Positions 5,587-52,500 of a stretch of DNA of 64,000 nt are shown here, piece after piece; positions within the stretch are counted from its first letter, which is position 1; each line of letters starts with the position of its first letter. The notes under the pieces are model-generated. The model was not told where the DNA came from, did not search any database, and was given only the letters and a program-made list of their open reading frames with translations. This DNA comes from Candidatus Curtissbacteria bacterium (lineage in GTDB: Bacteria; Patescibacteriota; Microgenomatia; Curtissbacterales; GWA2-41-24), in contig JACPEV010000013.1 in assembly GCA_016183325.1 (NCBI GenBank), positions 4,837 to 68,836 of the forward strand. Reading direction: 5' to 3'. Made by a program: the position numbers and the translations under genes.

Positions 5587-5840
5587 AATTTTCCCTAAAA
5601 AAAGGCTGTTTGGACTATCCAAACGCCTCAAGGGGATTATATATCAGCCATGTTTTGATTGGCAAGCTGGTATACTAATAATCTAATCGAAATGATCTAC
5701 TTTCCTGAAGTCATTCTCGACCTGTCTGCTTCCAGCGACCCGCAGGGGTCGAGAATCCAGATCCTCGCTCTGAATTAATAATTCGAGTCGTAGACTTTCG
5801 CGAGGATGACAAATAAGGGCGCGGAATAACGAGAGATAAA

Positions 5841-12751: not shown

Positions 12752-12917
12752 AATACCCCATTCTTGCGAATGGGGGCCCCAAGAAAGATAATATCTCCTG
12801 TATATATTGTTCGAGCTTGCTCGCCTCGCTGCGAAGCGGGTCGAGAACTTACTTTTAAATCTTGGATAAATCAGATCCTGAAACCCATTCGGGTCGATAA
12901 AATCAGACGAGTTCAGG

Positions 12918-14024
12918 ATGACGAAGAAGAAGGATGTATACTCGGAGATTAATAATATGGCTAAAAAGCTGCTTCTAATCGACGGGAATTCACTATTTCA
13001 TCGGGCATATCATGCACTGCCGCCGCTGACGGATAAAAACGGGGAGATGGCCAATGCGGTGTTTGGATTTTCTAATATGTTGCTTAAGGCAATTTCTGAA
13101 GTCAAACCGGATTATATTGCTTGTGCATTTGACACAAAAGCTCCGACTTTTCGCCACATTGAATTTGAGAAATATAAAGCTCAAAGAGTTGCGCCGCCGC
13201 CGGATCTTTATCCGCAACTGCCGAAAGTGAAAAAAGTTTTGGATGCGTTTGGAATTGCTTATTTTGAAAAAGAGGGCTATGAAGCAGATGATTTGTTGGC
13301 AACACTGGCAACTAGAGCCTTGGAATCTGTCATCCTGGAGGGAGTGAAACGACCGATAGGATCTAATGAAAAAAAGAGTAGAGATTCTATCGCTTCGCTC
13401 CAGAATGACAAAAGTGTAGATCAAGTAATTATTCTTTCTGGTGATAGAGACTGTCTGCAATTAGTTGACGGTAGAGTCAAAGTTCAGATGCCGGGATGGA
13501 ATTTGCAGGGGACTACATTATATGGATCGGAGGAGGTTCGGGAAAAATATGGACTCGAACCTCATCAGATGGTGGATTACAAGTCGCTCGTCGGAGATCC
13601 TTCGGATAATGTGCCGGGAGTCAGTGGAATAGGGCCAAAAACTGCAAGTCAACTTTTACAAAAATATCACACCCTGGAAAATCTTTTTAAAAACCTTAAC
13701 AAGATTCCTGAGGCTTTACGTCAAAAACTAGAAGTCGGCCACAAGACAGCCCTTGCTGCTAAGAAGTTGGTGGAACTGGACCGAAACATCGATTTACGAT
13801 TTACGATTAACGATTTACGATTTGAACCGGATTGGGAGAAGGTTCGGCGGGAATACGAACGATTAGGCTTTAAAAGCATAGTCGCGAAGATCCTTGGATC
13901 AGCTAACACCTCCGAGGTGGGTTTACCCCGAGCGGAGTCGAGGGGCTTTGACTCATCGGAGGTGGGTCAAGCCGCGAAGCGAAAACCCAAATCCAATAAC
14001 TCTGATCAGCTTGAGTTAATCTGA
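12918..14024 (+). CDS. 5'-3' exonuclease (Pol I N-terminal domain / FEN family), stand-alone, with a C-terminal extension
   Basis: KKLLLIDGNSLFHRAYHALPPL, then GYEADD, and H3TH GVSGIGPKTA. Probable true start is MAKKLL at 12957. Contains in-frame repeat insertions at 13329-13409, about 13790-13830 and 13906-13966. Confidence 0.8.
   Translation: MTKKKDVYSEINNMAKKLLLIDGNSLFHRAYHALPPLTDKNGEMANAVFGFSNMLLKAISEVKPDYIACAFDTKAPTFRHIEFEKYKAQRVAPPPDLYPQLPKVKKVLDAFGIAYFEKEGYEADDLLATLATRALESVILEGVKRPIGSNEKKSRDSIASLQNDKSVDQVIILSGDRDCLQLVDGRVKVQMPGWNLQGTTLYGSEEVREKYGLEPHQMVDYKSLVGDPSDNVPGVSGIGPKTASQLLQKYHTLENLFKNLNKIPEALRQKLEVGHKTALAAKKLVELDRNIDLRFTINDLRFEPDWEKVRREYERLGFKSIVAKILGSANTSEVGLPRAESRGFDSSEVGQAAKRKPKSNNSDQLELI
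13329..13409 (+). repeat. palindromic element family A, copy A1, in-frame within the exonuclease gene
   Basis: gtcatcctggagggagtgaaacgaccgataggatc...gattctatcgcttcgctccagaatgac, with inverted termini gtcatYctggag. Translated in-frame as SVILEGVKRPIGSNEKKSRDSIASLQNDK. Confidence 0.8.
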
Positions 14025-15471: not shown

Positions 15472-16782
15472 ATGAAAATCGCCCTCGTCCATGACTACTT
15501 AAACGAATTTGGTGGGGCAGAACGGGTTCTTTTGGCGCTGTCGGAGATTTGGCCCAAGGCGCCGATTTATACGGCGTTTTATAAAAAGGGATCGACGGCA
15601 TACGAGCGATTTGCCGATAAAAAAATAATTGCTTCTTGGGCCCAAAATGTGCCCTTTTTTGCCGACTACTTGCACAGTCCCTTGAGATTTTTAGCTCCTT
15701 TGATTTGGGGCAGTTTTGATTTTTCGGGATTTGATGTGGTCATTACGTCGGCCAGTTGGTATGTGACGAAAGGCGTGATCAGGTCATCAGGTCATCAGGT
15801 AATCAGGACATCGGGAAAAAAGGGGAAAAATCCCGACAACCCGACAACCCGACAACCCGACAACCCGATTGAGGTTTGTTATTGTCACACGCCACCGAGA
15901 TATTTGTATGGCTATACAACCTCGGTTGATTGGCAGAAATATTGGCCGGTGAGGTTGTATGCACTGATAGTGAATCATTTCATGCGGGTTTATGATTTTG
16001 AAGCAGCGCAGAGGGTCGATCATTTTATTGCTAATTCGAAGGAAGTCGCAGGAAGGATTAAGAAGTTTTACAGACGTGATTCGACGGTAATTTATCCGCC
16101 GGTAGATTTACCATGTTCATCGTTAATTGTTAATAGTTCATCGGAAAAAAGAGCGATGAACGATAGGCAAAGCCTGCGGTCCTCGTCGAGTCAAGACTCG
16201 ACTCCGGGCCTAAAACGATCTACGATTAACGATTACTTCCTTGTTGTTTCCAGAATCGTCGGCGGTAAAGGTTTAAATTTAGCTGTTGAGGTGGCGATGA
16301 AAATGAACTTGAAGTTGAAAGTGGTGGGGAGTTCGGCGGGGTATGGAAGGGAATATCAAAAATTGAGAGAGATAGCCCGCCTCAGCTCGGCGAGGCAAAC
16401 TGGTCCAAATGTGGAGTTTTTGGGGTTTGTCGAAGATAGTGAGCTTGCCGAACTATACTGCGGAGCACGAGCTTTTTTGGCTTTGGCGCAGGATGAGGAT
16501 TTTGGAATAACGCCTGTTGAGGCGATGCTTTGCGGCACACCGGTGATTGCGTTTGATGGGGGGGGATATAGGGAAACGGTCATCCAGCGAAAAACCGGGC
16601 TGTTCTTTGATCCGGCGACAGCGGGTTCTTTAACTTTGGCAATTAATAATTTTTTAGATATGGAGAAAAAGGGGGAGTGGGACCGTGATTTTATCAAAGA
16701 ACACGCGCAGAAGTTTAATAAAGACAGGTTTAAGAAGGAAATAATCAAATTTGTACAGCATAAGATACGGATGGGAGAGTGA
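15472..16782 (+). CDS. glycosyltransferase family 4 (GT-B, RfaG-like)
   Basis: N-terminal MKIALVHDYLNEFGGAERV and C-terminal EDFGITPVEAMLCGTPVIAFDGGGYRETV (E-x7-E region). Two in-frame simple-repeat insertions at 15779-15870 and 16130-16240. Confidence 0.8.
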   Translation: MKIALVHDYLNEFGGAERVLLALSEIWPKAPIYTAFYKKGSTAYERFADKKIIASWAQNVPFFADYLHSPLRFLAPLIWGSFDFSGFDVVITSASWYVTKGVIRSSGHQVIRTSGKKGKNPDNPTTRQPDNPIEVCYCHTPPRYLYGYTTSVDWQKYWPVRLYALIVNHFMRVYDFEAAQRVDHFIANSKEVAGRIKKFYRRDSTVIYPPVDLPCSSLIVNSSSEKRAMNDRQSLRSSSSQDSTPGLKRSTINDYFLVVSRIVGGKGLNLAVEVAMKMNLKLKVVGSSAGYGREYQKLREIARLSSARQTGPNVEFLGFVEDSELAELYCGARAFLALAQDEDFGITPVEAMLCGTPVIAFDGGGYRETVIQRKTGLFFDPATAGSLTLAINNFLDMEKKGEWDRDFIKEHAQKFNKDRFKKEIIKFVQHKIRMGE

Positions 16783-26489: not shown

Positions 26490-28058
26490 TTGAGGATAAT
26501 TAGAACAAAATGGTTGCAAAATAATTTCTCCAAGGAGCATTTTATACGGGGCTTCGATGCTAAAATAAATTTGATGAAATTCGTTGCCGATTTGCATTTA
26601 CATAGCAAGTACTCCAGAGCAGTATCACAAGAAATGATTTTGCCAAAAATGGCCCAGTGGGCCAAACTTAAGGGGATAAATGTTTTGGCGACTGGAGATT
26701 TTACGCATCCTTTTTGGTTTGATCAGCTGAAAAAGGAGTTGATTGATGATGGCAACGGACTTTATCGGCTAAAGCCGACAATTGACAATTCACATTTAAC
26801 AATTGACAAAAGCAAGTCAAGTGTTAATGGCTCGCCTCGCTTCGCGCCTGCGTCGACGATAGTCGCGGGCGAAGCGGGTCAAATGTTAAATGTTAAACAA
26901 GAAGTTTACTTCATGCTCTCATGCGAGATTGCTTCCATATACTCTCAAGGTGGCAAAGTCAGAAGAATCCACAATTTATTCTTTTTCCCCTCTTTGGGCT
27001 CTGTTGAAAAATTTAACAGGGCGCTTCTTGCGCGAGGTGCTAGTCTGCGATCTGACGGTAGGCCAGTGGTGGGAATAAATTCGCGGGATCTGGCGGAAGT
27101 CGCGCTTAAAGTTGACAAGAAGGCTTTAGTGATTCCTGCACATGCATGGACTCCGTGGTTTTCTATTTTTGGCAGTTTTTCCGGTTTTGATTCTATTGCT
27201 GAGTGTTTTGGGGACATGAGCAAATATATTTATGGAATTGAAACCGGTTTATCTTCTGATCCGGCAATGAACTGGAGGATAGAAGACTTGGACAGCCGAG
27301 CCATTCTTTCGTTTTCCGATGCACATAGTTTGGAAAAAATGGGAAGGGAAGCGACAGTGTTTGAGGCGGAGGAGCTTAGTTATGAGAGCATTTATGATGC
27401 AATAAGGTTGTCAGGTAATCAGGCAATCGGGTTATCAGGGAAGCAAATGCCCGATTACCAGACATCCCGAGAACCTAGTAACCCGTCAAAGATTGCTTTT
27501 ACTATCGAATTTTATCCGGAGGAAGGGAAATATCATTTTACGGGCCATAGGGATTGTAATTTTCGTCAATCACCGGAAGAGACAGCCAAAAATGGGAATA
27601 TTTGTCCGGTTTGCAGGCGACCTTTGACTATTGGCGTAATGCACCGCGTGAAGCAATTGGCTTCACGCGAAATTTCCAATTTCAAATTTCCAATTTCAAA
27701 TGGGGTTAAATGGGTAAAATCAGAGGAGGGAAGGCCACCTTATGTTTCGATGGTGCCACTTGGAGAAATTCTTGCGGAGGCACTCGGAGCAGCTGTAAAA
27801 ACTCAAAAAGTGAGTGATACTTATTTTCAGTTGGTAAACAATCTAGGCAGCGAATTTAATGTTCTTTTGAAGGCTGACCTTTCCGATATCGCCAGATTTT
27901 CGAATCAAAAAGTAGCAGAAGGGATTGATCTTGTCAGACGTGGGGAGATTATCGTTGATCCTGGGTATGATGGCAATTTTGGCGTTGTTAAAATATGGCC
28001 GGATGTTCCTTCCAGCGAGCCAAAAGTTGAACCATCGCAACTGAATTTATTTGCATAA
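26490..28058 (+). CDS. PHP-domain nuclease, endonuclease Q-like
   Basis: ADLHLHSKYSRAVS is a PHP His motif, as at the EndoQ N-terminus. There is also a Cys cluster, CPVCRRPLTIGVMHRV. Probable start is MKFVADLHLH at about 26575. Two in-frame repeat insertions at 26775-26890 and 27405-27490. Confidence 0.45.
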   Translation: MRIIRTKWLQNNFSKEHFIRGFDAKINLMKFVADLHLHSKYSRAVSQEMILPKMAQWAKLKGINVLATGDFTHPFWFDQLKKELIDDGNGLYRLKPTIDNSHLTIDKSKSSVNGSPRFAPASTIVAGEAGQMLNVKQEVYFMLSCEIASIYSQGGKVRRIHNLFFFPSLGSVEKFNRALLARGASLRSDGRPVVGINSRDLAEVALKVDKKALVIPAHAWTPWFSIFGSFSGFDSIAECFGDMSKYIYGIETGLSSDPAMNWRIEDLDSRAILSFSDAHSLEKMGREATVFEAEELSYESIYDAIRLSGNQAIGLSGKQMPDYQTSREPSNPSKIAFTIEFYPEEGKYHFTGHRDCNFRQSPEETAKNGNICPVCRRPLTIGVMHRVKQLASREISNFKFPISNGVKWVKSEEGRPPYVSMVPLGEILAEALGAAVKTQKVSDTYFQLVNNLGSEFNVLLKADLSDIARFSNQKVAEGIDLVRRGEIIVDPGYDGNFGVVKIWPDVPSSEPKVEPSQLNLFA

Positions 28059-43336: not shown

Positions 43337-45151
43337 ATTTGCGGGATTTTTGGTTACGTTGGTAAACAGCGTGACGCTGCAAAGATTGTTTTTGAGGGTC
43401 TTAAGCGGCTTGAATACCGCGGTTATGATTCGTGGGGAATAGTTGCGGTGAGTGGAAAGTTGAAAGTTGAGAGTGGAAAATTATTAGTAGAAAAGCATGT
43501 GGGGAAAATCGGCAATTCAACTCTCAATTCTCAACTCTCAATTCTCAAATCAAGTATAGCTCTTGGCCACACGCGCTGGGCGACGCACGGGGGAGTGACT
43601 AAGGAGAATGCCCATCCACATTTAGATTGCAGCGGAAATTTGGCTTTGGTTCATAACGGCATTGTCGAAAATTATCAAGAGCTTAAAAAAAGCCTCAAAA
43701 AAAAGCATAAATTTAAATCTCAGACGGATTCGGAAGTGATAGTACACATGATCGAGGAATTGAGAGGCTTAATCTCTTCTAAGGTTGAACCTTCAACAAA
43801 GGTTCAACCTTTAAAAGATACTGTCAGGAAAGTGTTTTTGAAACTCACAGGACTTAACGCTATTGTAGTGATGAATGATGGAGAACTGGTTGTTGCTAAG
43901 AACGGATCTCCTTTAGTTTTGGGGATAGGCAGTGGTGAGTATTTAGTAGCTTCTGATGCGGCGGCGCTTTTGCCTCACACAAATAAAGTTATTTTCCTGC
44001 GAGACAACCAGATGGCAGAAATAACGGATAGTGGAGTAAATATTTTTGATATAGCCTCAGATGAGGCAGTAACACCAAAAGTAGAAATACTAAATTGGAA
44101 AATTGAAGAAGCAAATCTTGGAGGCCATAAACACTTCATGATCAAAGAAATTTACGAGCAGCCAAAGGTTATCAGGAACATATCAGAAACTTATATAGAC
44201 CAAATAAGTGATCTTTGTAAGGTAATCGAGAAAGCTCATGGCACATTTTTTATTGGGGCTGGAACCGCATTTAATGCTTGTCTTGCCGGGGCGTATCTTT
44301 TTTCAAAGATTGCAAAAGCGCATGTAAATACGATTGTCGCTTCCGAATTTAATTATCTGGAGCATTTTTTACATAAAGAAACTTTGGTGATTGCTCTTTC
44401 ACAATCCGGGGAAACAATCGACGTTATTGAGCCCTTGAAAAGGGCAAAAGAAAAAGGTGCCAAGATTGTGGCGATTGTAAATAATTTGGGCTCGACGATT
44501 TGGCAAATGGCAGATTATAAATTGTTACTTGGTGCCGGAGTTGAGATGGCGGTTGCTTCAACAAAAGCTTATGTTTCTAAACTTTCTGTTTTAATCTTGA
44601 TTGCATATGGACTCGTGAATAGACTGGACGAGGGAAGAAAATTGCTTGCAGAGGCTGCTGATGAGGTTGAAAGACTATTGTTCGAGGAAGTGGAAAACAT
44701 AAAAAAAATCGCAAAAATTTTAGCAGTCCACGATCATATTTTTACCATTGGTCGAGGACTTTCGTATCAAACGGCCCTTGAGGCTGCTTTGAAGATGAAA
44801 GAGGTTAGTTATATTCATACGGAAGGATTGGCTGGAGGAGAGCTGAAGCACGGGCCGATTGCATTAATTTCAAAAGGGACGCCGTGCGTTGTTTTTGCAC
44901 CAAACGATGAGACACATGAGGCAATTATTTCTAACGCCACCGAGATTAAAGCAAGAGGCGGGTTGATTATCGGGGTTGGGTCAAAAAAGTCAGAAGTGTT
45001 TGACGAATGGGTCCAAGTGCGAGATTTAGGGGACGCTTCTATAATTTGCAATGTTATTCCAGCACAGCTATTTGGTTATTTTTTGGCGATTGAGAAAGGT
45101 TTGGACCCGGATAAGCCAAGAAATTTAGCAAAGTCAGTCACTGTGAAATAA
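43337..45151 (+). CDS. glmS: glutamine--fructose-6-phosphate aminotransferase, apparently initiating at ATT
   Basis: Frame reads (I)CGIFGYVGKQRDAAKIVFEGLKRLEYRGYDSWGIV, with the Ntn Cys directly after the initiator, plus two SIS domains and C-terminal ...KSVTVK. AAGGAGG sits 5 nt upstream of ATT 43337. The nearest in-frame ATG (43448) would delete the catalytic Cys. Two in-frame simple-repeat inserts at 43450-43550. Confidence 0.8.
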   Translation: MCGIFGYVGKQRDAAKIVFEGLKRLEYRGYDSWGIVAVSGKLKVESGKLLVEKHVGKIGNSTLNSQLSILKSSIALGHTRWATHGGVTKENAHPHLDCSGNLALVHNGIVENYQELKKSLKKKHKFKSQTDSEVIVHMIEELRGLISSKVEPSTKVQPLKDTVRKVFLKLTGLNAIVVMNDGELVVAKNGSPLVLGIGSGEYLVASDAAALLPHTNKVIFLRDNQMAEITDSGVNIFDIASDEAVTPKVEILNWKIEEANLGGHKHFMIKEIYEQPKVIRNISETYIDQISDLCKVIEKAHGTFFIGAGTAFNACLAGAYLFSKIAKAHVNTIVASEFNYLEHFLHKETLVIALSQSGETIDVIEPLKRAKEKGAKIVAIVNNLGSTIWQMADYKLLLGAGVEMAVASTKAYVSKLSVLILIAYGLVNRLDEGRKLLAEAADEVERLLFEEVENIKKIAKILAVHDHIFTIGRGLSYQTALEAALKMKEVSYIHTEGLAGGELKHGPIALISKGTPCVVFAPNDETHEAIISNATEIKARGGLIIGVGSKKSEVFDEWVQVRDLGDASIICNVIPAQLFGYFLAIEKGLDPDKPRNLAKSVTVK

Positions 45152-45172
45152 ATTTCTTGTCTTGCGGTCCTC

Positions 45173-45196
45173 CCCCGCCCTTCGCGAAAGGCGGGG
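45173..45196 (+). terminator. GC-rich hairpin downstream of glmS (possible terminator)
   Basis: ccccgcc cttcgcgaaag gcgggg. There is no clear U-tract. Confidence 0.25.
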
Positions 45197-45298
45197 TGCG
45201 GGCCTAAAACCACGGAACATTGCGAAGAGTGTGACGGTTAAGTGATTGCGTTTATCGTTTATGGTTTATTGTTTATCGCACGAGTTTCGCACATGATG

Positions 45299-45384
45299 TC
45301 ATCCTGGAGCGAAGTGAAACGAAGCGATAGGATCTACTTTAAGAATTAAGATTCTATCGTGGTCGTTGCCACTCCAGAATGACA
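45299..45384 (+). repeat. palindromic element family A, copy A2, intergenic and itself nested in a second inverted repeat
   Basis: gtcatcctggagcgaagtgaaacgaagcgataggatc...gattctatcgtggtcgttgccactccagaatgac. Flanked by cacgagtttcgc (45281-45298) and gcgaaactcgtg (about 45404-45415). Confidence 0.8.
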
Positions 45385-45464
45385 GATGAAAGTAGTTTAG
45401 TGCGAAACTCGTGTATCGTTTGGTTTGGCAATGAACGATTAACAATTTACGATTAACTGTACAA

Positions 45465-46058
45465 ATGAAACTTGGAGCTAAACAATTAAGAGTGAGTGAA
45501 CCAAGCGAAGCTGATCTTAAAAAGATCAAACGGCGGGAGGTTTATATTATTTGTGACAATGTTTTGGATACTTATAATATCGGATCGATATTTCGCTTGG
45601 CGGATGCTCTGGCAGTTAAGTGCGTTTATCTGTGTGGTGGATCGGAAACTCCTCCAAATGCTCGGATTGCTAAGGCCAGTGTGGGGACTGATAAGTGGGT
45701 ACCATGGCAATATAGAGCAACAGCGGTCGAGGCGATTTTGGATCTCCGGTCCCGTCATTCTGGAGGGAGTGAAACGACCGATAGAATCTCAAGAGATCCT
45801 ATCGCTTCGCTCCAGGATGACAGGATAGGAATCAAGGTAGTTGCAATAGAGCAGAGCAAAAATAGTCAAGACTTTAGGAAAGTGGAGTATACAGAGCCCG
45901 TGGCTTTTGTGGTTGGGCATGAAACAGGAGGGGTATCAAAAGAAGCTTTGAAGATGGCGGATCAAATCGTGGAGATACCGATGTTTGGTATAAACCGATC
46001 ACTTAACGTTATGGTTTCTCTGGCTATTGTTTTGTATCAAGCCGTAGTAATGGATTAA
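45465..46058 (+). CDS. SpoU/TrmH-family RNA 2'-O-methyltransferase (SPOUT)
   Basis: VVGHETGGVSKEALKMADQIVEIPMFGINRSLNVMVSLAIVLYQ are SPOUT motifs 2-3. An in-frame family-A palindrome lies at 45754-45821. Confidence 0.7.
   Translation: MKLGAKQLRVSEPSEADLKKIKRREVYIICDNVLDTYNIGSIFRLADALAVKCVYLCGGSETPPNARIAKASVGTDKWVPWQYRATAVEAILDLRSRHSGGSETTDRISRDPIASLQDDRIGIKVVAIEQSKNSQDFRKVEYTEPVAFVVGHETGGVSKEALKMADQIVEIPMFGINRSLNVMVSLAIVLYQAVVMD
45754..45821 (+). repeat. palindromic element family A, copy A3, in-frame within the SpoU methyltransferase gene
   Basis: gtcattctggagggagtgaaacgaccgatagaatc tcaagagatc ctatcgcttcgctccaggatgac, translated as RHSGGSETTDRISRDPIASLQDDR. The reading frame differs from copy A1. 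Confidence 0.8.
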
Positions 46059-46060
46059 TC

Positions 46061-46594
46061 TCAATTGGGACTGATGGTATAACTAACTGTATTTGTTGAA
46101 ATGGGGCAAACGGTAGTATTTTGGGTTGGGTCTTTTTGGGAATCGTTTTGATTTTCAAGACAGGCAACTATTGAATAACCAGTGCAGGCGTTTGGCCCGC
46201 AGCTTGCGGGAGTTGGAGTGTAAGTATAAGCTGATCCGGTTTTGGGATCCTTTGGAACAGCTTTTATATAAGGATTTGATGCTGGGGAAAGATCCGGATT
46301 GGTCGAGGTTCCGGTTATGCCACAACTGCCTGAAACGTAAGTATCACAACTTGGATAATAATAGGCACCGGCGGTGTCTTGTCTGGCAAGCTCCAGAGCT
46401 TTTTTGGCGGCATCAAGATCTGTTTTGCGCCGGGAATCACGGCTTCTGGCTTGTGCTCCGCTGAAAGAGGCAACTGAAATTGTAGCTAAAATGCCGATAA
46501 TCGCGATAATGACTAATAATTCAATAAGAGTGAAGCCAGTGCGCCTTTGGCGCAAGTGATGAGTGATGAGTGATGAGTGATGAGTCGTGGGCAT
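46061..46594 (-). CDS. type IV pilin / pseudopilin (prepilin-type N-terminal methylation domain)
   Basis: GFTLIELLVIIAIIGILATISVASFSGAQARSRD is the class III signal and hydrophobic helix. A His-rich leader is encoded by (catcactcat) repeats. Confidence 0.75.
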   Translation of the reverse strand: MPTTHHSSLITHHLRQRRTGFTLIELLVIIAIIGILATISVASFSGAQARSRDSRRKTDLDAAKKALELARQDTAGAYYYPSCDTYVSGSCGITGTSTNPDLSPASNPYIKAVPKDPKTGSAYTYTPTPASCGPNACTGYSIVACLENQNDSQKDPTQNTTVCPISTNTVSYTISPN

Positions 46595-47321: not shown

Positions 47322-47721
47322 TTGTCAAGCGGTGTAGAATTAGTCGCGCGATATGCGAATACTGTTTGGTAATTTTTCTTCATTCTTACAAGTTCGCAAT
47401 TCATAGCTCTTTAACAACTGAAAAGTATGCCGCTTTTCAGTATTCTTTTGTTTGATCTTGATCCGCCTACGCTCTTCGAGCTTCGGCGGACTGCGAGTTC
47501 AAGCAAGCTTGAACTCTGAAAAGTGGCACCCAAAAAACCGGAAATCGGAATTCGGAAATCGGATTTCGGACTTTTTCTGAGATCTGATATCTGATATCTG
47601 AAATCCGGGAATAATCCTTAGAGTTATTTAAAATCGAGTTCAGATTAAATTCTTTTTTGAGAGTTTGATCCTAGCTCAGGATGAACGCTGGCGGCGTGCC
47701 TTAGGCATGCAAGTCGAACGG

Positions 47722-48155
47722 CCGGAGATCAGATTTCGGAAATCGGATTTCGGATATAATTAGAGAAGTGATGGATGTAACGGAATTGAGAGTGTATAGG
47801 CAATCATTAGATGCATTTCTATTAATTGAAGAGATTGCAAAACAATTGCCAAAAGAGTTAGCTGATACAAGAAGACAAATATTAAGATGCTCAAAAGCTG
47901 TTGCACCCATTATTGCAGAGGGTTTTGGACGTAGACATTCACAAAGAGAATTTGGACATTACGTAATTCAAGCTATGAGTTCTTCAGATGAGACAATAAC
48001 CCATTTGAGAACAATTGCTATTTCCAAATTTAATACTGTTTCAATCGATCAGTTGAAACATGCGGCGAGTGTCTATAAATCTCTTTCCAAACAACTCAAC
48101 AAACTTTTCACTTCTTTAATAGTCTGAAATCTGACTTCTGATATCCGATCTCCGG
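47722..48155 (+). other. intervening sequence in the 16S helix-6 region, bounded by inverted repeats and encoding a protein
   Basis: ccggagatcagatttcggaaatcggatttcgga (5' boundary) and tccgaaatc...atccgatctccgg (3' boundary) are inverted repeats around ORF 47768-48127. The mature 16S resumes with cagtggcggaagggtgagtaatg. Confidence 0.65.
47768..48127 (+). CDS. four-helix-bundle protein of the family known as rRNA intervening-sequence (S23-like) proteins
   Basis: LRVYRQSLDAFLLIEEIAKQLPKELADTRRQILRCSKAVAPIIAEGFGRRHSQREFGHYVIQAMSSSDETITHL matches the family pattern, including AEG[FY]GRR. Confidence 0.7.
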   Translation: MMDVTELRVYRQSLDAFLLIEEIAKQLPKELADTRRQILRCSKAVAPIIAEGFGRRHSQREFGHYVIQAMSSSDETITHLRTIAISKFNTVSIDQLKHAASVYKSLSKQLNKLFTSLIV

Positions 48156-48929
48156 CAGTGGCGGAAGGGTGAGTAATGCATAGGAACGTACCTTTTGGTG
48201 GGGAATAACCCGGCGAAAGCCGGGCTAATACCTCGTAATCCCGCAAGGGTATAGGGCTTAACCGCCCGCCGAAAGAGTGGCCTATGTCCTATCAGCTTGT
48301 TGGTGGGGTAATGGCCTACCAAGGCAACGACGGGTAGCTGGGCTGAGAGGTCGGCCAGCCACAAGGGAACTGAGACACGGTCCCTACACCTACGGGTGGC
48401 AGCAACCGGGAATTTTGGACAATGGGCGAAAGCCTGATCCAGCGACGCCGCGTGGAGGAAGAAGGCCTTAGGGTTGTAAACTCCTTTTGGCCCGCATAAT
48501 GCGGGCAGAATAAGCACCTGCTAACTACGTGCCAGCAGCCGCGGTGATACGTAGGGTGCAAGCGTTATCCGGATTTACTGGGCGTAAAGGGTTGCGTAGG
48601 CGGCTTGTTAAGTCAAAACTGAAATACTCTCGCTCAACGAGGGGGACGGTTTTGATACTAGCAGGCTTTGAGTCTTTCAGAGGTAGCTGGAACTTGCAGT
48701 GGAGCGGTGAAATGCGTTGATATTGCAAGGAACACCGAAGGCGTAGGCAAGCTACTGGGAAAGATCCCTGTACCATTCGGTACGGGACGGGCTGCATCGT
48801 AAGATGCGCCTAGTCTGACGCTGATGCACGAAAGCTAGGGGAGCGAAAGGGATTAGAGACCCCTGTAGTCCTAGCCGTAAATGATGGATACTAGATGTCC
48901 GGCTCGCAAAGTCGTATGACTTTGCGAGA

Positions 48930-49022
48930 ACATTTGACATTTAACAAATTAACATTTGACTATTGGAAAATTTTGTAAATTTTTTAAGTCAATTGTTAAA
49001 TGTTACTAGTTAATTGTTCGAG
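48930..49022 (+). repeat. insertion of about 90 nt in the 16S helix around E. coli position 840, built of 'acatttgaca/caattgtta' repeats
   Basis: gaacatttgacatttaacaaattaacatttgactattgg...gtcaattgttaaatgttactagttaattgttcg lies between conserved cgcaaagtc...gacttt and gctaacgcgttaagt. Confidence 0.55.
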
Positions 49023-49084
49023 CAAAATCGTAGATTTTGCGAGCTGGATGTCGCAAGCTAACGCGTTAAGTGTCCCGCCTGGGA

Positions 49085-49152
<68 letters not shown>

Positions 49153-49356
49153 CAATTCGACACAAAGCGAAAAACCTTACCAGGATTTGACATCCTAACT
49201 GCACCCTAGTGGAAACACCGGGCTTCTTCGAGAGTGTTAGGACAGGTGCTGCATGGCTGTCGTCAGCTTGTACCGTGAGGCGCACCCTTAAGTGGGTCAA
49301 CAAGCGCAACCCCCATCCTGTGTTATATTTCACAGGAAACTGCCCGCTAAAAGCGA

Positions 49357-49387
<31 letters not shown>

Positions 49388-49588
49388 CGGCCCTTATGTC
49401 CTGGGCTACACACATCCTACAATGGGTATTTGACAACAGGTTTGCAATCCGGTAACGGAAAGCTAATCCCCAAAAATACCCTCAGTTCAGATTGAGGGCT
49501 GCAATTTGCCCTCATGAAGTTGAAATCGCTAGTAATCGCGGATCAGCAGGCCGCGGTGAATACGTTCTCGGGTCTTGTACACACCGCC

Positions 49589-50545
49589 AATTTAAAAAAC
49601 GCGCGTGGCAGCATAAATGGCTAGTTGGTTCAAATCCAACTCACGTTCATGAAACTGAACGTGATAGTCAAAAAAATTAGACAGTTCCGACAGAGTAATT
49701 TGTCGGTACGGAGGGTCTGAGACAAATAGCAGTCCATTTAAAAAAGTTCTTTTCATGAATGATCTCAGCCGGGCGGTTTGAGAGAAATTCAACTAATAAA
49801 GTAGAAGAATTGATGGAATGCTAGGAATAGTTATTTATGTAACCCATGGAGATCCTATCAGGAAGAGGTTATTATCTGGTAGGAAGTCAGCTGTTTCATA
49901 GTAAGTAAATTAGAGGATTGATTTTGTTGCTTGATAGAAGTAAACTAAATTAACCCGAATATTTACCGAAGGGAACAACGAAGTGATAACGTCAGATTAT
50001 ATTGTTGGTTTTACCGACGGCGAAGGCTGTTTTTATGTACAAATAAGAACAGATTTTCGTATCGTGCTTCGATATTTTATAACCCAACGATTTGACAACA
50101 AAGAAATCTTAGAAAATATTTTAAGATTCTTTGGAGTTGGATATGTGCATTTAAAAGCACAAGAGTGGGGTAGGGAATATAGAAGATCTCGGTTACCAAC
50201 ATATGTCTTTGAGGTGACTAAACAGGAACATATTCAAAATGTGATTGTTCCTTTCTTTAGAAAAAATCCACTTCAAGGAGTGAAACAGTTCTCTTTTGAA
50301 AAATTCGCAAAGATTGCAGACCTTGTAAAAGGTCGGCAAGACACGCGACTACTTTCTGAAGAGGAACTTGAATTAATCTGGCAGTTGAAACGTTCTATGA
50401 ATGTTTTAAACACTTCGGCTCGCCTGGTGCCGGAAATCGGCTCGCCGGTCCACCTACGCTAAAGCTACGGTGGATCCTCCGAAGCTCCAAAGGAGCGGAG
50501 GAGGAGTGGGAACGGGAACATACCTCTAAGTATCCCAATCCGTCA
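49589..50545 (+). mobile_element. intron-like insertion of about 0.95 kb near the 16S 3' end (around E. coli 1400), carrying a LAGLIDADG endonuclease ORF
   Basis: The conserved gtacacaccgcc is interrupted at about 49588. A 16S-like sequence (..cgtcaagcc..aagtcggtagtgcctgaag..gtcgtaacaaggta) resumes at about 50545. The exact boundaries are uncertain. Confidence 0.55.
49983..50462 (+). CDS. LAGLIDADG homing endonuclease encoded within the 16S insertion
   Basis: IVGFTDGEGCFYVQI is the LAGLIDADG motif. 159 aa. Confidence 0.8.
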   Translation: MITSDYIVGFTDGEGCFYVQIRTDFRIVLRYFITQRFDNKEILENILRFFGVGYVHLKAQEWGREYRRSRLPTYVFEVTKQEHIQNVIVPFFRKNPLQGVKQFSFEKFAKIADLVKGRQDTRLLSEEELELIWQLKRSMNVLNTSARLVPEIGSPVHLR

Positions 50546-51916: not shown

Positions 51917-52170
51917 CTCTAGTCCCGGTCCTTCGGACCAGGGACCGAGTCGGTTTTGACGAAGTCAAAACCAGACTCCTTCGGACCAGGGACCGAGTCG
52001 GTTTTGACGAAGTCAAAAACCAGACTCCTTCGGACCAGGGACCGAGTCGGTTTTGACGAAGTCAAAACCAGACTCCTTCGGACCAGGGACCGAGTCGGTT
52101 TTGACGAAGTCAAAACCAGACTCCTTCGGACCAGGGACCGAGTCGGTTTTGACGAAGTCAAAACCAGACT
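51917..52170 (+). repeat. tandem array of five 48-bp hairpin-forming units with no spacers
   Basis: Unit tccttcggaccagggaccgagtcggttttgacgaagtcaaaaccagac x5; one copy has an extra a. Each unit contains the perfect hairpin ggttttgac gaa gtcaaaacc. Confidence 0.85.
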
Positions 52171-52227: not shown

Positions 52228-52500
52228 GTGTCTGGAATGTTTTACTATGTTTATATTCTTTTCAGTCTAAAGGATAAGAACTTATATGTTGGAAGAACTA
52301 GCGATATATTCAAAAGGCTAGAAAGACATAATAACGGACGAGTAATTGCAACTAAGAGTAGAAGACCTTTAAAGTTAATACATCTGGAAGTTTTTAAAGA
52401 TGCTGGAAAAGCTTTTTTAAGAGAAAAAGAACTTAAGTATCCAAGCGCAGGGAAATTTAAAAAGGAATTAAGAGAAAAATTAGGAATAGATAGAGTCTGA
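52228..52500 (+). CDS. GIY-YIG nuclease-domain protein
   Basis: FYYVYILFSLKDKNLYVGRTSDIFKRLERHNNG contains the GIY...YIG...R..H/E-N core. Confidence 0.75.
   Translation: MSGMFYYVYILFSLKDKNLYVGRTSDIFKRLERHNNGRVIATKSRRPLKLIHLEVFKDAGKAFLREKELKYPSAGKFKKELREKLGIDRV

Follow-up and report, generated by a model that had tools for sequence, protein, structure and literature searches.

In-frame palindromes of a Candidatus Curtissbacteria genome are inverted heterodimers of a hairpin unit found beside GIY-YIG nuclease genes

Introduction

Palindromic repeats that are translated within conserved genes are familiar from Rickettsia, where the Rickettsia palindromic elements (RPEs) were reportedly described by Ogata et al. 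in 2000 and 2002. Here we analysed three palindromes of one repeat family, termed family A, in 64 kb of DNA from Candidatus Curtissbacteria, a member of the candidate phyla radiation (CPR; Patescibacteria), and compared them with RPEs, with the CGTC-tagged repetitive extragenic palindromic (REP) sequences and with the hairpin targets of Ssn-type GIY-YIG nucleases. The window is the whole analysed stretch (64,000 nt) of a 75.5-kb contig.

CGTC-tagged REPs open with CGTC or TGTC, have a stem whose first pairs are AT, end in a 3-nt tail and occur mostly as dimers, heterodimers included (Di Nocera, De Gregorio, Rocco 2013, BMC Genomics, PMC3733652). When intragenic, the dimers code for 20–30 aa, notably in replication and repair genes including that of DNA polymerase I. 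In the same survey CGTC-1 is the Neisseria dRS3 repeat, CGTC-1 and CGTC-4 of R. conorii are RPE-6 and RPE-4, the repeats were never flanked by tyrosine transposase genes, and no dedicated enzyme was found for them (PMC3733652).

The Neisseria sequence NTS (CGTCATTCCCGCGMAVGCGGGAATCYRG) is the target of SsnA, a 94-aa single-domain GIY-YIG nuclease (CDD cd10448) whose gene is flanked by Ssn-related motifs (SRMs) (Chenal et al. 2025, Nat Commun, PMC11893778). SsnA binds the hairpin as single-stranded DNA (ssDNA) only and on one strand only, cuts a few nucleotides upstream and does not bind RNA; ssDNA- and strand-specific upstream cleavage was found for both the Neisseria and the Wolbachia enzymes, the C after the palindrome being critical for binding and the three bases before it for cleavage (PMC11893778). 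SRMs lie near 71% of SsnA homologs and on both sides of 42%, and the authors remarked on the architecture as resembling an insertion sequence (IS) and listed Rickettsia and Wolbachia among the repeat-rich genomes; their paper makes no mention of RPEs, CPR or archaea (PMC11893778).

Results

The three palindromes are inverted dimers of an oriented hairpin unit

A preliminary description of the window had claimed three near-identical palindromic elements, two of them inserted in frame in conserved genes, and likened them to RPEs. All three elements, of 68–86 nt each, are present (Table 1): the 12-nt termini GTCATYCTGGAG / CTCCAGRATGAC have six exact matches in the window, which are both arms of the three elements, against 0.32 matches expected from shuffles with one mismatch tolerated, and the inner stem CGATAGRATC / GATYCTATCG has six exact matches at the same sites. 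The positions first given for the genic copies stand, whereas the intergenic copy is shifted by one base (45298–45383, not 45299–45384). Near-identity holds for the stems; copies 1 and 3 differ in the loop, and the internal modules of copy 2 are longer than those of the other two. Between copies 1 and 3 the internal modules are identical and, the central loop aside, the stems differ only at four covarying positions, which read C,G,T,A in copy 1 and T,A,C,G in copy 3, the opposite T-A/C-G assignment. Deriving copy 1 from copy 3 by a single inversion between the arms was tried and rejected, as it does not yield the observed state, and no single path of substitution does so either; two nested inversions or an exchange of modules would be needed.

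Each palindrome is an inverted dimer of an oriented hairpin unit with its GTCAT heads facing outward. As ssDNA, all three elements are predicted to form long hairpins (−13 to −17 kcal/mol, z −3.5 to −4.9), with −13 kcal/mol (z −3.5 to −4.3) for copy 1, which is open in three of six frames, and −15.5 to −16.9 kcal/mol for copy 2.

Outside the window, we scanned species-representative genomes (one per species) with the pattern GTCATYCTGGAG-N(3-18)-CGATAGRATC, in which Y and R were left free, and it matched at least 120 stretches. Most of the 120 loci that we analysed carry half of the palindrome only, so that the basic unit is a single arm. This unit reads (T/C)GTC-AT-YCT-GGAG, a variable module (minimum CGAAG), then CGAT-AGR-AT-C-Y, and has a length of 27–37 nt in the window that reaches 40 nt at other loci; five Watson-Crick pairs are followed by GGAG/CGAT (a possible G.T and a tandem G.A) and by the module of 5–18 nt. 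The pattern itself fixes the GTC head, the AT...AT and the final C, so that every unit has them. Y and R, left free in the scan, nevertheless covary, with 106 T..A, 61 C..G and only 3 mixed among 170 units (167/170 Watson-Crick), which demonstrates a compensated pair inside the unit; in GTCAC...AGAGTC variants the neighbouring pair is compensated too. GTC is preceded by T in 104, by C in 43, by A in 16 and by G in 6 of 169 units (T or C, 87%), and a pyrimidine follows ATC in 154/169 (91%).

Units stand alone, sit within the loop of a second unit, or form inverted dimers whose heads point outward. The last arrangement was found 18 times and the opposite one twice, and 17 of the 18 dimers with both arms matching the pattern combine one T-A with one C-G unit, homotypic dimers being absent (0). 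Because of this pairing of unlike arms, a T.G and an A.C mismatch is always present in the long hairpin, which is the predicted fold of the dimer.

The record titles of the matches listed place the unit in many Patescibacteria lineages, Fibrobacter, Clostridia, Bacteroidota, Cloacimonadota and Anaerolinea, and the labels of metagenome-assembled genomes (MAGs) add Gammaproteobacteria and three archaeal contigs. The archaeal-binned carriers are L015, L053 (Methanomethylophilaceae MAG) and L030 (Bathyarchaeia MAG), for which binning error or transfer is possible. Among the Fibrobacter loci (L023, L027, L040 and L026, L034, L107, L110), nesting of the form GTCATCCTCGct-unit-aCGAGGATC recurs, and single units with compensating changes in the inner module occupy apparently orthologous positions just upstream of terminator-like hairpins.

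The same units bracket genes for small GIY-YIG nucleases

All-against-all clustering of the open reading frames (ORFs) in the 120 unit-bearing loci returned one cross-phylum family beside the units, a protein of ~90 aa consisting only of a GIY-YIG domain (Pfam PF01541), and no recurrent transposase-like family. At one locus (L092) the GIY-YIG ORF takes up the whole gap from a T-A unit, whose end lies 5 nt ahead of the ATG, to an inverted C-G unit at the stop codon, and the units have the same polarity as in the dimers.

Three of these ~90-aa proteins were used as queries in a metagenome scan, which gave 544 relatives, and we analysed the best 80 loci (82 gene copies; 76 upstream and 81 downstream flanks scorable) with a strict detector (GTCAT plus 3 nt ... 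complementary 3 nt plus ATC). In these best 80 of the 544, a forward unit lies within 80 nt upstream of the GIY-YIG gene in 46/76 (median gap 21 nt), an inverted unit directly follows the stop in 57/81 (median gap 2 nt), and units occur on both sides in 33/75. The 80 loci hold 388 units in 263 kb (1.47 per kb), compared with 11 in shuffled sequence, and the repeat flavour varies among them.

Units of the family-A flavour bracket the GIY-YIG gene in L092, in L121, L210 and L212 (Daviesbacteria) and in L211 (Levybacteria), and the closest relatives of the L121 nuclease, itself with family-A flanks, come from Daviesbacteria, Levybacteria and Microgenomates. One T-A and one C-G end were found at the nuclease modules of L092, L211 and L212; the T-A plus C-G heterodimers mirror the two ends of the nuclease module.

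Further features of these loci were recorded. In Levybacteria (L211:5391–7566), the nuclease module stands between two glycosyltransferase ORFs, the downstream one of which contains an in-frame family-A dimer. In two Daviesbacteria (L210:6001–6288 and L212:6001–6291), the nuclease gene is syntenic, with a DUF8128/DUF87 gene preceding it and a tRNA gene following, a placement more like that of a resident single-copy gene than of a freely hopping element; each of these two contigs has a second GIY-YIG gene without flanking units.

Genic copies are read through as insertions in the loops of two conserved proteins

Copies 1 and 3 lie inside genes for a stand-alone 5'-3' exonuclease and for a SpoU/TrmH protein (Table 1). 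As the preliminary description had claimed, neither copy introduces a stop codon, and the frame in which the element is read differs between the two: ORF 12918–14024 continues as ...ES-VILEGVKRPIGSNEKKSRDSIASLQNDK-SVDQ... and ORF 45465–46058 as ...RS-RHSGGSETTDRISRDPIASLQDDR-IGIK.... The exonuclease product is 100% identical to Cand. Curtissbacteria HYU92_04550 (P0001), and the SpoU protein to Candidatus Curtissbacteria HYU92_04740 (P0121). In both, a Pfam match is split at the insert, namely 5_3_exonuc_N (at residue 136; 5_3_exonuc also matches) and SpoU_methylase.

The extra residues are insertions: for both host proteins, the set of the 120 closest orthologs includes insert-free base forms, reading ...AMHA-KVDKVIILSGDRD in the exonuclease and ...KYQVSG-IKIIAIEQ in SpoU proteins of 172–173 aa. 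Alignment of Taq polymerase to the exonuclease runs up to residue 134 and resumes at 169, with 5 residues against 34, and alignments to TrmH structures in the PDB break at the insert of the SpoU protein. AlphaFold2 models built on the ortholog alignments (mean predicted local distance difference test score, pLDDT, 82.6 and 81.5 for the two models) place both inserts in low-confidence helix-to-strand loops: between helix 110–123 and strand 156–160 of the exonuclease (355-aa numbering; pLDDT ~50–65) and between helix 87–98 and strand 124–128 of the SpoU protein (pLDDT ~50), each modelled with no secondary structure. The inserts are probably translated as 24–27 extra residues that the models predict to be disordered.

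Unexpectedly, other orthologs have a wide variety of inserts in these two loops, several of which are dimers of sister repeats. At the DNA level, one ortholog loop (L208) contains such a dimer, GTCATTGCGAGG...GCAATC, another (L207) two tandem dimers containing a canonical TGTCATTCCCGCGAAAGCGGGAATCTAT, and a third (L209) a hairpin built of heptamer repeats; nested combinations of inserts were found in orthologs P0063, P0096 and P0123. In the exonuclease loop of P0006, P0008, P0027, P0011 and L209:1501–2493, there are peptides coded by tandem heptamers (KCQMSNVKCQ, KFQISNFKFQ) and hairpins of heptamer repeats (CAGTTCA/CCGTGAA) that are not GTCAT units; these thus represent a second class of simple hairpin-forming sequence at the same site. 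Overall, 9/18 dimers lie inside long ORFs (7/15 for strict dimers outside the window), and one long ORF at L114:1–2100 contains at least three dimers or units.

Copies 2 and 3 show signs of recent activity

Copy 3 is identical at 68/68 positions in two relatives, L201 and L202, in the second of which the flanks are only ~60–66% identical. The 60 nt nearest to copy 3 on either side are 100% and 92% identical in L201, as homing might leave them, and no such co-conversion of flanks was found in L202. Copy 2, together with the composite block that encloses it, is absent from the corresponding spacer of L201, a relative of 88% identity. The identity of copy 3 and the absence of copy 2 are signs of recent activity, and the dimers in long ORFs outside the window, in L114 and beside the L211 module among others, are counted with them.

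Separately, the comparison of window positions 45100–46070 with L201:1–990 is mosaic: the end of glmS and a tract of ~300 nt around copy 3 are ~100% identical, and the ends of the SpoU gene are ~80% identical on both sides. This mosaic identity hints at recent recombination between lineages.

Other repeats of the window

Copy 2 is enclosed by a 14-nt inverted repeat, which in turn is flanked (45250–45460) by heptamer repeats, CGTTTAT four times upstream and AACGATTAAC-like on the other side; copy 2, the 14-nt repeat and the heptamers form a nested composite. Similar AT-rich inverted repeats occur at 16119–16233 and 26789–26896. The dimer of another flavour at 5710–5810 is intergenic, consists of one TCT and one CCT unit, and folds into two adjacent hairpins (−22 kcal/mol, z −3.6).

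At 51922–52165, between a tRNA gene and the small GIY-YIG ORF of the window, five 48-nt repeats run head to tail, each with a hairpin GAGTCGGTTTTGAC-GAA-GTCAAAACCAGACTC; these repeats and the ORF at 52237–52500 possibly form a further nuclease-hairpin pair that differs in type. Insertions in 16S rRNA genes are common in CPR bacteria, and the 16S rRNA gene at 47653–49640 measures 1988 nt for an Rfam model of 1533 nt, with ~450 nt inserted.

Table 1. Coordinates of the palindromes, host genes and related features in the 64 kb window
Feature	Position	Strand	Description
Dimer of another flavour	5710..5810		GTCATTCTCGACC...GGTCGAGAATC (5710-5757, +) vs GTCATCCTCGCG...GCGAGGATC (5760-5810, -)
Single unit of a third flavour	12874..12922	-	GTCATCCTGAAC...GTTTCAGGATC; spacer just upstream of exonuclease gene; predicted fold -7.6 kcal/mol
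Exonuclease host gene	12957..14024	+	Stand-alone 5'-3' exonuclease, Pol I N-terminal type; 355-aa product
Copy 1 (81 nt)	13329..13409		In frame, 5'-3' exonuclease gene; loop 19 nt
Copy 1, left unit	13329-13363	+	C-G type; module GGAGTGAAACGAC
Copy 1, right unit	13383-13409	-	T-A type; module CGAAG
14-nt perfect outer inverted repeat	45279-45292, 45400-45413		CACGAGTTTCGCAC / GTGCGAAACTCGTG; encloses copy 2 centrally; span 45279..45413
Copy 2 (86 nt)	45298..45383		Intergenic, spacer between glmS and SpoU genes
Copy 2, left unit	45298-45334	+	C-G type; long module
Copy 2, right unit	45350-45383	-	T-A type; long module
SpoU/TrmH host gene	45465..46058	+	RNA 2'-O-methyltransferase family; insert aa ~98-121
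Copy 3 (68 nt)	45754..45821		In frame, SpoU/TrmH gene
Copy 3, left unit	45754-45788	+	T-A type; module GGAGTGAAACGAC
Copy 3, right unit	45795-45821	-	C-G type; module CGAAG
Small GIY-YIG ORF (87 aa)	52237..52500	+	Only GIY-YIG in window; PF01541 E 3e-15; hhalign probability 96.9%

Discussion

We put at roughly 75% the probability that the window palindromes are gene-less miniatures of a unit-nuclease-unit module, read through where they have landed in tolerant loops. The full form would consist of two inverted units bracketing a gene for an Ssn-type GIY-YIG nuclease of ~90–95 aa, as judged from the sequences of the nuclease loci, and the dimers of the window would retain its two ends, one unit of the T-A and one of the C-G type. 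It is this unit-gene-unit arrangement with heterotypic family-A ends that makes the gene-less dimers best read as miniature derivatives. Their landing sites would have been an intergenic spacer, the inside of another palindrome and two genes, and the genic survivors would be only those insertions that kept the frame, brought no stop codon and fell in tolerant helix-to-strand surface loops.

By its sequence features, the family-A unit belongs to the superfamily of CGTC-tagged REPs and NTS/SRM, together with dRS3/NTS, RPE-4 and RPE-6, an assignment based on the head, the first stem pairs, the tail, the organisation in dimers, the behaviour in genes and the association with nucleases. It shares with CGTC REPs the (T/C)GTC head at one end, the compensated stem starting with AT and the 3-nt tail, the predominance of inverted (hetero)dimers and the intragenic copies. 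With NTS/SRM it shares the unpaired (H)GTC head, the stem opening with AT and the C-pyrimidine tail; both features critical for SsnA, the C after the palindrome and the GTC before it, are found in the units, where they are fixed by our pattern. The bracketing of a ~90–95 aa GIY-YIG gene by two inverted units (for family A seen outside the window only), the many scattered gene-less copies and the flavours that differ by lineage are further likenesses. The link between such repeats and GIY-YIG nucleases was reconstructed here independently and had already been published in 2025.

There are also differences. The stem of five pairs followed by GGAG/CGAT and a variable module departs from the 8–9 bp stem and 4–5 nt loop of both NTS/SRM and CGTC REPs, CPR lay outside the earlier survey (PMC3733652), and family A is hosted by CPR/Patescibacteria as well as, going by MAG labels, by Fibrobacterota, Clostridia, Bacteroidota and a few archaea. 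Many family-A copies are in frame within genes, and the flavour is known from sequence alone.

The likening of the palindromes to RPEs is borne out by in-frame insertions that are absent from orthologs, differ in reading frame and lie at places where extra residues are tolerated; the family-A unit moreover has the anatomy of the CGTC-tagged REP superfamily, to which RPE-4 and RPE-6 belong (PMC3733652). At the sequence level, this statement of the literature is the one link between RPEs and family A. In contrast to RPEs, whose host is an obligate intracellular alphaproteobacterium, family A resides in free-living or epibiotic CPR bacteria, and RPE-1 is longer (>100 bp). The preliminary description was right about the palindromes and about RPEs, and both of its own refuting checks came out in its favour, the residues being insertions and the element occurring beyond the window; it had missed that each palindrome is a dimer of a smaller unit, that the unit flanks nuclease genes and that other flavours occupy the same loops. 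Our literature searches gave only chance primer matches for the repeat strings of this and sister flavours, nothing for palindromic elements in frame in CPR, and no paper linking GIY-YIG enzymes with RPEs, miniature transposable elements with inverted repeats (MITEs), REP doublets forming hairpins (REPINs) or the REP-associated tyrosine transposases (RAYTs).

Several observations weigh against the derivation from a nuclease module. The window contains no Ssn-type gene with family-A flanks: its one GIY-YIG ORF is a distant relative (31% identity to the unit-flanked nucleases by tblastn), preceded by five 48-nt tandem hairpin repeats and by no GTCAT units, and the nearest solved structures to the unit-flanked GIY-YIG proteins are the UPF0213 proteins 1zg2 and 1ywl. 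No direct repeats stand beside the three window copies (flanks AATCT/AAAAG, ATGAT/AGATG and GTCCC/AGGAT), and neither a target-site duplication nor a clean empty site was recovered for the elements. By nearest-neighbour energies a single family-A unit is a weak hairpin (−1.4 to −4.1 kcal/mol) that does not outdo its shuffles, compared with −9 for NTS. In Neisseria, NTS copies inside genes are rare (2%), and the demonstrated role of NTS and SsnA is the restriction of transforming ssDNA, not transposition (PMC11893778). Finally, the published SRM motif, HGTCWYN(0-2)YYVSBRHN(0-5)WNVSBRGN(0-2)RNCYNB, matches none of the 170 family-A units, whereas it matches the NTS control; since it has only 2 matches in the 263 kb around the 80 GIY-YIG relatives, it is too narrow to decide membership.

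That role in Neisseria underlies the alternative that survives best, namely that the palindromes are sites beneficial to the host and kept for a function, for example as marks for the restriction by Ssn of incoming ssDNA during natural transformation. NTS and SsnA lower the integration of NTS-bearing transforming DNA in Neisseria (PMC11893778), several type IV pilin-like proteins of the window are compatible with DNA uptake, the nuclease module is syntenic in two Daviesbacteria as a resident gene would be, and copy 3 is perfectly conserved across diverged orthologs. We nevertheless regard this explanation as unlikely: the same ortholog loops contain many different inserts or none, as expected from parasitic turnover, the peptides are read in differing frames and are disordered in the predicted models, and the supporting experiments all come from outside CPR.

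The REPIN-RAYT system resembles the derivation from a nuclease module in its logic, as it replicates in the form of inverted doublets of short hairpins and its full form is an enzyme gene between inverted hairpins, with singlets as remnants (Bertels and Rainey 2011, PMC3116915). If the palindromes were themselves REP/REPIN-type doublets, copied by a RAYT (an IS200/IS605-like HUH tyrosine transposase), their hairpin-doublet architecture, singlets, nesting and predicted long hairpins would be accounted for. This is very improbable, as the head is (T/C)GTC and not GTAG, the enzyme beside the units is a GIY-YIG nuclease rather than an HUH tyrosine transposase, its gene is bracketed by units at 61–70% and is the sole recurrent family in the ORF clustering of the 120 loci, and CGTC repeats were reported never to have tyrosine transposase genes beside them (PMC3733652). 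RAYT-REPs were dropped, along with integron attC sites and CRISPR repeats, because the head sequence does not fit and neither arrays nor transposases accompany the units.

We attach scarcely any weight to a classical MITE, that is, an internally deleted DDE-type IS with 12-nt terminal inverted repeats moving by cut-and-paste with target-site duplications, which would suit the short, dispersed, genic and intergenic copies with inverted termini, but not the lack of flanking direct repeats, the abundance of half-elements standing alone with an internal compensated stem, or the absence of any IS with such ends in ~0.9 Mb of loci. Just as little speaks for an RNA with a structure of its own, such as a regulatory hairpin, a ribozyme or a small intron, instead of a DNA-level element: the strong predicted hairpins and the conserved Fibrobacter positions upstream of terminator-like hairpins would fit, but no Rfam family matches the element at the gathering threshold (whole window) or at E<=10 (45200–45900), the dimer reads alike on either strand, units face both ways with respect to genes, the genic copies leave the frame open, for which a spliced element would have no need, and SsnA does not bind RNA (PMC11893778). 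A hammerhead-like CTGGAG...GAAAC was likewise dropped, most units having only CGAAG at that place.

Whether the unit-nuclease-unit modules are active, nuclease-only mobile elements, with gene-less heterodimers still being spread or homogenised in CPR and re-entering the same loops, is a further claim, and one that we consider tentative and on balance doubtful. It draws on the identity of copy 3 across diverged orthologs, on the presence of at least three SRM flavours in one loop and on the nesting in palindromes. On the main reading, too, an Ssn-type nuclease of the Curtissbacteria genome may act on the window copies. With heads outward, each strand of a dimer would offer one unit in the recognised orientation, so that one cut would be expected on each strand, at the two outer boundaries, and nicking there might lead to spread, replacement or homogenisation by way of the repair and recombination of the host. 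GIY-YIG cleavage leaves 3'-OH and 5'-phosphate ends and the enzyme cannot join DNA, so any spread would have to pass through host repair or recombination; we know of no strand-transfer chemistry for GIY-YIG enzymes.

What is new here is the CPR lineage, a flavour that the SRM motif misses, the heterodimer rule, the recurrently hit loops, a copy that stays identical across orthologs with strongly diverged flanks, and the link between in-frame palindromes and Ssn. A feature of a CPR genome is thereby assigned to a system with an enzyme that had not been characterised until 2025, and the reach of that system is extended to Patescibacteria. Inserts of this kind account for varying lengths and split domain matches in the annotation of conserved CPR proteins, and they may add to assembly breaks. 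The heterodimer rule and the conservation of copy 3 offer handles on how DNA could be spread by a nuclease that has no joining activity, and Ssn-type GIY-YIG proteins become a concrete candidate for the long-missing enzyme behind the 'protein-coding palindromes' of the Rickettsia type. If the elements are indeed active, the pairing of T-A with C-G units would mark two strand-specific cleavage sites that are the boundaries of the element, and the in-frame palindromes known in Rickettsia since 2000 and the inserts of CPR bacteria would share one driver, the Ssn-type nucleases.

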